Below, piece after piece: positions 38,281 to 43,004 of a stretch of DNA of 64,000 nucleotides. This stretch comes from Escherichia coli (GTDB taxonomy: Bacteria > Pseudomonadota > Gammaproteobacteria > Enterobacterales > Enterobacteriaceae), in the NCBI RefSeq assembly GCF_003334785.1, contig NZ_QOWV01000001.1; one strand, given 5' to 3'. Positions within the stretch are counted from its first letter, which is position 1. Every line of letters starts with the position of its first letter. The translations under genes were made by a program, and so were the position numbers. The notes under the pieces are model-generated. The model ran no database searches and was not told where the DNA came from. It was given only the letters and a program-made list of their open reading frames with translations.

Positions 38281-38903
38281 CCCGGTGTGTGCAATATACG
38301 AAAAAAAAGCCCGTACTTTCGTACGAGCTCTTCTTTAAATATGGCGGTGAGGGGGGGATTGACTCGCTTCGCTCGCCCTGCGGGCAGCCCGCTCACTGCG
38401 TTCACGGTCTGTCCAACTGGCTGTCGCCAGTTGTCGAACCCCGGTCGGGGCTTCTCATCCCCCCGGTGTGTGCAATATACGAAAAAAAAGCCCGTACTTT
38501 CGTACGAGCTCTTCTTTAAATATGGCGGTGAGGGGGGGATTGACTCGCTTCGCTCGCCCTGCGGGCAGCCCGCTCACTGCGTTCACGGTCTGTCCAACTG
38601 GCTGTCGCCAGTTGTCGAACCCCGGTCGGGGCTTCTCATCCCCCCGGTGTGTGCAATATACGAAAAAAAAGCCCGTACTTTCGTACGAGCTCTTCTTTAA
38701 ATATGGCGGTGAGGGGGGGATTGACTCGCTTCGCTCGCCCTGCGGGCAGCCCGCTCACTGCGTTCACGGTCTGTCCAACTGGCTGTCGCCAGTTGTCGAA
38801 CCCCGGTCGGGGCTTCTCATCCCCCCGGTGTGTGCAATATACGAAAAAAAAGCCCGTACTTTCGTACGAGCTCTTCTTTAAATATGGCGGTGAGGGGGGG
38901 ATT
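38281..38903. repeat. tRNA-linked tandem repeat array: four 181-bp direct repeats, each carrying the serX terminator and the last 19 nt of tRNA-Ser
   Basis: Unit starts at about 38284, 38465, 38646, 38827 (period 181); shared tggcggtgagggggggatt core; near-identical copies. Confidence 0.9.
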
Positions 38904-38972
38904 CGAACCCCCGATACGTTGCCGTATACACACTTTCCAGGCGTGCTCCTTCAGCCACTCGGACACCTCACC
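38885..38972 (-). tRNA. serX: tRNA-Ser (88 nt, long variable arm)
   Basis: Acceptor 5' GGTGAGGTG / 3' CACCGCCA, T-arm GGTTCGAATCC; followed on minus strand by hairpin plus T-run. Confidence 0.9.
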
Positions 38973-39166
38973 AAATTGTCGTTCCTGTCTTGCTGGAACG
39001 GGCGCTAATTTAGGGAAATCATGACCTGAGGTCAACAAACTTTTTGAAAAAATCGCGCGTTTATTCAAACTTCAATCAATGTGTGGTTTTAATAAGCGAA
39101 ATCTGCTTTTTTTGCCACCGACCACGGATTTGTTATGCTGGTGGCCTTTGTAGATCATAATGATAA

Positions 39167-40144
<978 letters not shown>

Positions 40145-40198
40145 TAAAGCATCAGGATTCCTGCTATCCTTGGCGGGAATTGAATACAGGAGAGAGTT

Positions 40199-40936
40199 AT
40201 GTATCCCGTCGACCTTCATATGCATACCGTTGCCAGCACACATGCATATAGCACATTAAGTGATTACATTGCCCAGGCCAAACAAAAGGGCATTAAACTT
40301 TTTGCGATCACCGATCATGGCCCGGATATGGAAGATGCGCCGCATCACTGGCACTTCATTAACATGCGTATCTGGCCGCGAGTGGTTGATGGGGTAGGGA
40401 TCCTGCGCGGCATCGAAGCTAACATTAAAAATGTTGATGGTGAAATTGACTGCAGCGGTAAAATGTTTGACTCGCTGGATCTAATTATTGCCGGTTTTCA
40501 TGAGCCGGTTTTTGCGCCACATGACAAAGCGACCAATACACAAGCGATGATCGCCACTATCGCCAGCGGCAATGTGCATATAATAAGCCATCCCGGAAAT
40601 CCCAAATATGAAATAGATGTGAAAGCCGTTGCTGAAGCAGCCGCGAAACATCAGGTGGCGCTGGAAATCAATAATTCCTCATTTTTACACTCACGTAAGG
40701 GCAGTGAAGACAAATGTCGTGAGGTAGCCGCAGCGGTACGTGATGCTGGAGGTTGGGTGGCATTAGGCTCGGATTCTCACACCGCGTTTACCATGGGGGA
40801 ATTTGAAGAGTGTCTTAAAATCCTCGACGCGGTAGATTTTCCGCCAGAGCGCATTTTGAATGTTTCTCCGCGCCGCTTACTGAACTTCCTTGAATCTCGC
40901 GGTATGGCACCGATTGCGGAATTTGCAGACCTTTAA
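40199..40936 (+). CDS. ycdX: PHP-family zinc phosphoesterase YcdX
   Basis: 245 aa, [14 protein letters not shown]-terminus. Confidence 0.9.
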
Positions 40937-40959
40937 TTACTAGTAATGGAAATATATTA

Positions 40960-41514
40960 ATGAACGAGTTTTCTATCCTCTGTCGTGTGCTGGGTTCGCT
41001 CTATTACCGCCAACCACAAGATCCTTTACTGGTGCCGCTGTTTACCCTGATTCGTGAGGGGAAACTGGCTGCGAACTGGCCACTGGAGCAGGATGAGTTG
41101 CTGACACGTTTGCAGAAAAGCTGTGATATGACGCAAGTCTCTGCCGATTACAATGCGTTGTTTATCGGCGATGAATGTGCTGTGCCGCCATATCGTAGCG
41201 CATGGGTTGAGGGCGCGACGGAAGCGGAAGTGCGCGCTTTTCTTTCTGAGCGAGGGATGCCATTAGCGGATACGCCAGCCGATCACATCGGCACATTGCT
41301 GCTCGCAGCTTCCTGGCTGGAAGATCAGTCAACGGAAGATGAGAGCGAAGCACTGGAAACACTGTTCAGTGAGTATCTGTTACCCTGGTGTGGTGCGTTC
41401 CTTGGCAAAGTGGAGGCCCATGCAACCACGCCTTTCTGGCGCACCATGGCACCGCTAACCCGCGATGCCATTAGTGCAATGTGGGACGAGCTGGAAGAAG
41501 ATTCTGAAGAATAA
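40960..41514 (+). CDS. ycdY: TorD/DmsD-family chaperone YcdY
   Basis: 184 aa. Confidence 0.88.
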   Translation: MNEFSILCRVLGSLYYRQPQDPLLVPLFTLIREGKLAANWPLEQDELLTRLQKSCDMTQVSADYNALFIGDECAVPPYRSAWVEGATEAEVRAFLSERGMPLADTPADHIGTLLLAASWLEDQSTEDESEALETLFSEYLLPWCGAFLGKVEAHATTPFWRTMAPLTRDAISAMWDELEEDSEE

Positions 41515-41615
41515 GTGTGATCTACGTCACTCATAACTGCAACGGATAATTTGTTGTTGCATAAAATGTGTGCTCGATCTCATTCATGGCCGCGTTTTCT
41601 GCTATCATGCGCGGC

Positions 41616-42107
41616 ATGAACATACTTCTCTCTATTGCAATCACAACAGGCATTCTCTCCGGTATCTGGGGATGGGTGGCTGTTTCCCTGGGCTTACTAA
41701 GCTGGGCGGGCTTCCTGGGCTGTACGGCCTACTTTGCCTGCCCGCAAGGTGGGCTGAAAGGGCTGGCGATCTCCGCTGCAACCCTGCTTAGTGGCGTGGT
41801 GTGGGCGATGGTCATTATTTACGGTAGTGCACTGGCACCACATCTGGAAATTCTCGGTTATGTCATAACCGGTATTGTCGCGTTTCTGATGTGTATTCAG
41901 GCCAAACAGCTGCTGCTTTCATTTGTTCCGGGGACGTTTATAGGCGCATGCGCGACGTTTGCCGGGCAGGGTGACTGGAAACTGGTGTTACCTTCGCTGG
42001 CGCTTGGGCTGATATTTGGTTACGCAATGAAAAACAGTGGCCTGTGGCTGGCGGCGCGTAGTGCAAAGACGGCGCACCGTGAGCAGGAAATCAAAAATAA
42101 AGCGTGA
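41616..42107 (+). CDS. ycdZ: Inner membrane protein YcdZ (DUF1097)
   Basis: 163 aa from MNILLSIAITTG. Confidence 0.85.
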   Translation: MNILLSIAITTGILSGIWGWVAVSLGLLSWAGFLGCTAYFACPQGGLKGLAISAATLLSGVVWAMVIIYGSALAPHLEILGYVITGIVAFLMCIQAKQLLLSFVPGTFIGACATFAGQGDWKLVLPSLALGLIFGYAMKNSGLWLAARSAKTAHREQEIKNKA

Positions 42108-42140
42108 GGGGCACTCACGCTTTCGCTTAAACAGTAAAAT

Positions 42141-42166
42141 GCCGGATGATAATTCCGGCTTTTTTA
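42141..42166. terminator. Bidirectional terminator between ycdZ and csgG
   Basis: gccggatgataattccggc hairpin plus T-run. Confidence 0.7.
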
Positions 42167-42170
42167 TCTG

Positions 42171-43004
42171 TCAGGATTCCGGTGGAACCGACATATGGCG
42201 GTATTTCACCAGAATGTCATTCTGCCGTTCTGCTTTATTTTGCAAATCCCACAGACCACGGTCGATACCATCATTAATCAGGAAAATGACCCCTGTTTCG
42301 ATAGCCGACATCAGGCACAGCATAACAGGTTCGTTCGAGGTGTAACCCACTTCCCCTTCAAGCAAGCGCTGGTAGTCAATAAAGCGGAAAACCCCGGCCT
42401 GAACTTCATAGGAAAGTATCGTCTTACTGGTGTTCACCGAAGAAAGGATCTCGCCGGTACTCACATTGACGACGCGCAGGTTCACGGCAATCTGATCGAG
42501 CTGGTATTGCGTGTCGGCACCGATGCCAAAATATCTTGCCCCAACCCCGCCAGATTTGACGTTGCTTTCATAACCGATAATCGAACCTTCAACCATGATA
42601 TTTGCCGCCGTTAAAGATTGCAGCGGGATTCGGTTATTAATGGCAACCGTGCCGTTTTCTTGTGCCGCACGAATAATCTTGCGCTCGTTAAGCAGGTTTT
42701 GTAAGCCCTGGCGCTCCAGCGGTATAAACCAGCGAGAATCTTTCAGTGCCGTGACCAGCATTGCCGTGGCGCTTTGCGGAACAGCAGTGGAGAAGTTACT
42801 TGCCGGGTAGGGTTTAAATTGCCCGGTTTCGTCCTGAATGTTGTATACCGAAACAAAGATTTTACCCGTCGGCGCTGGCAGATGGGTCAAATCTTTGTAG
42901 CTCTGAGCACGAGGCATTAATGTCGGTCTGGCGGCTTCTTTAGGCGGGGCGGTTAAGCATCCGCTCAGTAACATGACGGCAACCAAAAGAAATAAGCGCT
43001 GCAT
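42171..43004 (-). CDS. csgG: Curli secretion channel lipoprotein CsgG
   Basis: 277 aa, lipobox LSGC. Confidence 0.95.
   Translation of the reverse strand: MQRLFLLVAVMLLSGCLTAPPKEAARPTLMPRAQSYKDLTHLPAPTGKIFVSVYNIQDETGQFKPYPASNFSTAVPQSATAMLVTALKDSRWFIPLERQGLQNLLNERKIIRAAQENGTVAINNRIPLQSLTAANIMVEGSIIGYESNVKSGGVGARYFGIGADTQYQLDQIAVNLRVVNVSTGEILSSVNTSKTILSYEVQAGVFRFIDYQRLLEGEVGYTSNEPVMLCLMSAIETGVIFLINDGIDRGLWDLQNKAERQNDILVKYRHMSVPPES

Follow-up and report, generated by a model that had tools for sequence, protein, structure and literature searches.

The ycdX-ycdY pair of Escherichia coli: a PHP-family zinc phosphoesterase encoded beside a DmsD-related chaperone

DmsD, the Tat proofreading chaperone of DMSO reductase that has been solved from E. 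coli (PDB 3efp, 3cw0 and 3u41) and Salmonella (1s9u), binds the twin-arginine leader of DmsA, YnfE and YnfF. TorD, the chaperone of the TMAO reductase TorA, is encoded in the torCAD operon beside its Tat-signal molybdoenzyme, the leader of which contains the sequence SRRRFLAQL. YcdY has been placed in the same NarJ superfamily with its common all-helical fold (PMC10609526). A chaperone relationship between YcdY and YcdX that involves zinc has been known since 2011 (Redelberger et al., J Bacteriol 193:6512, as cited in PMC4464133, PMC6239281 and PMC13184987). [quoted passage not shown] The term atypical is used in the literature because no molybdoenzyme client with a Tat leader is encoded beside ycdY. 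A crystal structure of YcdY is available from Enterobacter cloacae (9m26, released 2025-06-18); this orthologue from another genus is 84-85% identical to the protein discussed here, the title of the entry names it a 'member of the redox enzyme maturation protein family', and the entry contains no complex with YcdX. With respect to the putative client, hydrolysis of pNPP by YcdX has been reported (PMC10816263), a phosphatase activity on free phosphothreonine is attributed to Zhang 2017 by PMC9700786, and a role in DNA repair was, according to PMC7046640, proposed when the crystal structure was described. The pair, the structure of YcdX (2003), the chaperone-client link (2011), the origin of YcdY from DmsD (2015) and the crystal structure of a YcdY (2025) have all been published, and the E. 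coli ycdX-ycdY pair described below is already known and already characterised.

The window, that is the whole stretch of 64,000 nucleotides of E. coli DNA that was analysed, contains the pair as two open reading frames on the plus strand, both with an ATG start: ycdX at 40199..40936 (245 amino acids) and ycdY at 40960..41514 (184 amino acids). In the E. coli record NZ_CP051001.1, which is 100% identical here, the RefSeq coding sequences match these bounds base for base (40199-40936 and 40960-41514), with the products 'zinc-binding phosphatase' for ycdX and 'molecular chaperone YcdY' for ycdY. They are the same genes as those of E. coli K-12 (YcdX, b1034, PDB 1m65, 1m68 and 1pb0; YcdY, b1035), and the order and neighbours of the genes are those that PMC5635171 gives for K-12. 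The sole difference from the K-12 pair is the exchange N172K in YcdX: codon 172 (40712-40714) specifies lysine in this strain and asparagine in the K-12 protein crystallised as 1m65, and the residue is no metal ligand and lies apart from those that are.

Both genes are part of the cluster ghrA-ycdX-ycdY-ycdZ, which is flanked by serX and csgG. The first cluster gene, ghrA (ycdW; 39206..40144, plus strand), encodes glyoxylate/hydroxypyruvate reductase A according to RefSeq and to a score of 688.7 bits on NCBIfam NF012013 (cut-off 403). The last one, ycdZ (41616..42107, plus strand), encodes a DUF1097 inner-membrane protein of 163 amino acids according to RefSeq and had no match among the NCBIfam models. 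A megablast search with this 3.1-kb stretch (39100-42200) found it in 5412 of 5426 complete E. coli genomes, many at 100% identity, and in 5381 of the 5426 at a coverage of at least 80%. The window is thus E. coli chromosome, 40199-41514 is the ycdX-ycdY pair of the core genome, and ycdX and ycdY are genuine conserved genes rather than chance reading frames. Three antisense or overlapping reading frames on the minus strand (40481-40651, 41162-41362 and 41325-41534) are short (56-69 amino acids), lack a RefSeq annotation and were taken as chance. Five of the 5442 places that match the ghrA-ycdXYZ stretch are on plasmids and not on the chromosome, and some genomes have two copies.

The genes of the cluster are closely spaced, with 54 bp between the stop of ghrA and the start of ycdX, 23 bp between ycdX and ycdY and 101 bp between ycdY and ycdZ. 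A Shine-Dalgarno-like sequence, AGGAGAGAG (40188..40196, plus strand), can be read just 5' of the ycdX ATG. In a consensus scan no terminator-like hairpin was present in the 54-bp gap between ghrA and ycdX, and no promoter-like site was present between the genes of the cluster. Within the cluster the scan gave a single terminator-like match, a hairpin in ycdY (41351-41371) that is weak, having only three G-C pairs, and it revealed no strong terminator-like site, i.e. a G+C-rich stem plus a T-run, in the cluster before 42141. Beyond the cluster, the hairpin GCCGGATGATAATTCCGGC (42141..42159, readable on both strands) between the convergent genes ycdZ and csgG is the first terminator-like site that has a T-run; this region is named REP96 in K-12 (PMC5635171). 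Upstream of ghrA, a sigma-70-like match (TTGCCA-16-TATGCT with TG; 39112..39139, plus strand) is a weakly supported candidate for the promoter of the ghrA-ycdXYZ cluster, as the site counts of the consensus scan are not much above those of shuffles, and promoter-like sites are no more frequent in the region (4) than in shuffles (4.4). The wording 'ycdWXYZ operon' is used in PMC7046640, and ycdX and ycdY are probably co-transcribed with ghrA and ycdZ, although promoter and terminator signals speak for a single operon only at the consensus level.

The serX flank of the cluster contains a perfect tandem repeat of 181 bp in 3.4 copies (38281-38903) directly 3' of the tRNA-Ser(GGA) gene serX (38885-38972, minus strand), each unit of which repeats the last ≈19 nucleotides of the tRNA and its terminator hairpin. 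Rfam assigns three RtT RNAs (RF00391) to it on the minus strand (38342-38478, 38523-38659 and 38704-38840), each with 46.3 bits at a gathering score of 45. In other E. coli, the RefSeq annotation of the serX locus has between one and three copies of 'RtT sRNA', and the copy number is variable, as the matched length differs between strains. The repeat seemed unusual at first sight but corresponds to the known RtT element.

YcdX is identical in 244 of 245 residues to the protein deposited as 'hypothetical protein YcdX' in 1m65, 1m68 and 1pb0 (E 9e-167), and by this identity to the solved 1m65 it has the distorted (alpha/beta)7 barrel of the PHP superfamily. The protein matches the Pfam PHP family (PF02811) at 1.2e-8 and, over its full length, NCBIfam PRK09248 with 421 bits (cut-off 264). 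The three-zinc site is complete, with H7, H9, H15, H40, E73, H101, H131, D192 and H194, the nine ligands of the three-metal site of 1m65 (Teplyakov 2003). The supporting residue E156 is also kept; the roles of H9, H40, H131, D192 and E156 in the zinc cluster of 1m65 have been described (PMC2665239). The original prediction for this region, which was made from the DNA letters, had named YcdX a PHP-family phosphoesterase with a zinc site, and the near-complete identity to 1m65 and the nine conserved ligands bear this out. It had also called the physiological substrate of YcdX poorly defined, and all literature that we found agrees.

Apart from its own structures, the closest solved relatives of YcdX are PHP domains in PolX from Thermus thermophilus (3au2 and 3b0x; E 6e-9), with which it shares the barrel and the three-metal site of nine residues (PMC2665239). 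In PolX this domain is joined to a polymerase core and works on DNA 3' ends; YcdX is a stand-alone protein of 27 kDa. Bacterial PolX PHP domains act as 3'-5' exonuclease, AP-endonuclease and 3'-phosphatase by means of the same nine ligands (PMC2665239, PMC6616362). This relationship, together with the DNA-repair role suggested with the crystal structure in the rendering of PMC7046640, would be compatible with YcdX being a DNA-repair nuclease that acts on 3'-phosphates or AP sites in the manner of endonuclease IV, and not a small-molecule phosphatase. However, the isolated PHP domain of PolX, deprived of the DNA-binding polymerase core, had no nuclease activity (PMC2665239). The substrates reported for YcdX in the literature cited above are pNPP and free phosphothreonine, the phenotype reported there is one of swarming and not of repair, and the adjacent genes, ghrA and ycdZ, have to do with metabolism and the membrane. 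We therefore regard a repair nuclease as quite unlikely and presume that YcdX is a phosphatase.

Residues 38-147 of YcdY match Pfam PF02613 (Nitrate_red_del, the NarJ/TorD/DmsD family) with an i-E of 5.5e-15, and the same domain is present in 120 of 120 listed YcdY homologues. An exhaustive representative search with YcdY yielded 308 clusters at E ≤0.001, from which an alignment of 57 sequences was prepared (A1). YcdY carries the motifs YNALF at positions 64-68 and PADH at 106-109, the counterparts of which are WQRLF and PEDH in DmsD and FCGLF and PADH in TorD; L67, F68 and D108 are conserved in at least 90% of the 57 aligned sequences. The AlphaFold model of YcdY (mean pLDDT 95.9, pTM 0.91) consists of nine helices. 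In a Foldseek comparison with the PDB the model superimposed on 9m26 with a TM score of 0.94-0.96 and an rmsd of 1.2-1.4 Å, and on DmsD of E. coli and Salmonella with a TM score of 0.82-0.84 and an rmsd of 2.3-2.6 Å. Weaker matches were AF0173, TtrD, NarJ and TorD, the low TM score to the latter being explained by the TorD structure, which is a domain-swapped dimer. On the basis of the aromatic-xxLF and (E/x)PxDH motifs, the profile match and the modelled fold, YcdY can be assigned to the NarJ/TorD/DmsD superfamily. Structural comparison of YcdY with the TorD/DmsD family was one of the checks that had been suggested beforehand; its outcome, with TM scores of up to 0.96 for 9m26 and as given above for DmsD, supports the assignment, and a lack of fold similarity was not seen. 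The other suggestion was to compare metal loading of YcdX in the presence and absence of YcdY; earlier work already covers most of both, through the 9m26 structure of 2025 and the zinc-related chaperone study of 2011.

Within the superfamily the two well-described chaperones are not equally close. Among solved structures, the YcdY sequence is matched best by 9m26 (E 6.5e-107); next come four entries for DmsD (E ≈2e-18, residues 2-175). YcdY and DmsD are 28-29% identical over almost the full length (E 2e-18), have the xxLF and PxDH motifs in common and adopt the same all-helical fold, with YcdY being ≈20 residues shorter. TorD shares the Pfam superfamily with YcdY but is far more distant: with the TorD of the window only 60 residues around the conserved motifs could be aligned (35% identity, E 1e-6). 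This torD gene (3118-3717) directly follows torA (575..3121), and its product obtains 265.9 bits with the TorD equivalog model of NCBIfam (NF003442, cut-off 132). YcdY reaches 38.6 bits on the same model and 89.9 bits on the DmsD equivalog model (NF008632, cut-off 162), in both cases below the cut-off. DmsD and not TorD is therefore the nearest characterised relative of YcdY, and YcdY is an equivalog of neither. YcdY is a DmsD-derived paralogue but not DmsD itself, in agreement with PMC4464133. The original prediction had put YcdY into the chaperone family of TorD, with TorD encoded at 3118..3717. The position and identity of TorD were correct, and common membership of the superfamily stands on PF02613 and the fold, with the refinement that DmsD is the closer of the two, as the score on the DmsD model is the higher one.

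Could YcdY then act in Tat proofreading as DmsD does, for a molybdoenzyme whose gene is elsewhere in the genome, with the adjacency to ycdX being incidental? Its best characterised relatives are indeed the DmsD proteins, by sequence as well as by fold, it partially matches both the DmsD and the TorD equivalog models, and several proteins of the YcdY clade have no PHP neighbour. However, YcdY remains far under both equivalog cut-offs, and ycdY is located only 23 bp from ycdX in an arrangement that is kept as far as Edwardsiella. DmsD recognises a twin-arginine leader, whereas the neighbour of YcdY has none: the N-terminus of YcdX lacks a twin-arginine (RR) motif, while TorA of the same window has RRRFL. 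Neither a molybdopterin enzyme nor a client with a Tat leader is found among the neighbours of ycdY, which are ghrA, ycdX (PHP) and ycdZ (DUF1097). It had been pointed out before that YcdY is paired with a PHP phosphoesterase rather than with a molybdoenzyme, and the leaderless YcdX next to it is in line with this. We consider Tat proofreading by YcdY highly improbable and presume that YcdY serves YcdX.

The gene contexts of YcdY-clade relatives in other bacteria were inspected for seven divergent representatives with ≈4 kb of flank per side; the seventh (P0155, locus L010) is on a contig of 1.6 kb, which is too short for a context. Edwardsiella tarda has a 2-hydroxyacid dehydrogenase, a GGDEF protein, a PHP gene (69% identity to YcdX by tblastn) and YcdY (61%) together, and in a poorly assembled genome (L008) fragments of a PHP gene lie upstream of the YcdY-clade gene. 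In Plesiomonas shigelloides (L003 3287-4588 and L004 3142-4443) a YcdY-like gene with 45% identity is located 36 bp 3' of a gene for an alpha/beta-hydrolase of 225 amino acids with a GHSLGG nucleophile elbow, and no PHP gene is present within the ≈4 kb inspected on either side. The Plesiomonas protein has AGGH in place of the otherwise nearly invariant PxDH motif, and this exchange and the pairing with a hydrolase could indicate a change of client or a functional decay. A pairing of YcdY with an alpha/beta-hydrolase was not found described in PMC4464133. The YcdY-clade gene of Arsenophonus nasoniae (L005 4001-4546) is alone, next to yceB (DUF1439), an MFS gene, an acetyltransferase gene and murJ and with no PHP neighbour; in one metagenomic lineage the YcdY-clade gene is likewise alone. 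In Pasteurella multocida (L006 and L007) the order is Band_7-NfeD-Flavodoxin_2 (MdaB)-YcdY-like, again with no PHP neighbour, which is the 'YcdYb' context of PMC4464133. No gene is called for MdaB at 3395-4001 of L006, and two fragments are present in L007; the MdaB gene may be degenerate in some strains.

These contexts suggest that the client can differ, and a YcdY clade of helpers that are generalists or can be re-assigned, with clients that vary between lineages and with YcdX as one of several clients in E. coli, is a conceivable explanation. The clade may consist of former molybdoenzyme chaperones that were repeatedly re-assigned to unrelated cytoplasmic clients, possibly to the PHP zinc phosphatase (Enterobacteriaceae and Edwardsiella), to an alpha/beta-hydrolase (Plesiomonas) and to a MdaB/Band_7-NfeD module (Pasteurella), and the E. 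coli YcdY could have clients beyond YcdX. The hydrolase neighbour in Plesiomonas, the YcdYb arrangement in Pasteurella and the solitary gene in Arsenophonus point in this direction. On the other hand, adjacency alone does not demonstrate a client relationship, the Plesiomonas protein that lacks PxDH may be decaying or changed in function, and with ≈4 kb inspected per side a PHP gene may be elsewhere in those genomes. Furthermore, proteobacterial ycdY genes that lack a partner in cis usually still have ycdX in trans (PMC4464133). We put forward repeated re-assignment as a tentative and rather doubtful idea; if it were true, further clients of YcdY might explain why swarming has no established link to a defined YcdX substrate. 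The observation itself, YcdY-clade genes beside other partners or none, is a mild new point, and all these genes are outside the window analysed here. Pairing of ycdY with a PHP gene is accordingly not clade-wide, as no PHP gene adjoins the YcdY-clade genes of Plesiomonas, Arsenophonus and Pasteurella.

For E. coli we favour the reading of ycdX-ycdY as an enzyme-plus-helper module, in which YcdY aids the zinc-dependent activation of YcdX, phosphomonoesters are the substrates of YcdX and normal swarming depends on both genes, and we assign it a probability of about 0.88. The identity of the genes, the folds, the metal ligands, the missing Tat signal, the adjacency and the conservation come from the present analysis; maturation, zinc dependence and swarming are taken from the literature as related by the citing papers. 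YcdX, which has no signal, would be made as a cytoplasmic apo-barrel. YcdY, built on a helical scaffold of the DmsD type, would bind to the mature YcdX domain instead of a Tat leader, as we infer from YcdX having no leader. According to the literature, in the form in which it is cited, YcdY would promote acquisition of the three-zinc centre by YcdX, or a conformation competent for it. Holo-YcdX could then hydrolyse one or more phosphomonoesters, and ycdX and ycdY would, according to the same citing papers, both contribute to swarming. The pair represents a textbook example of a family of cofactor-insertion chaperones that is re-used for a non-redox zinc enzyme.
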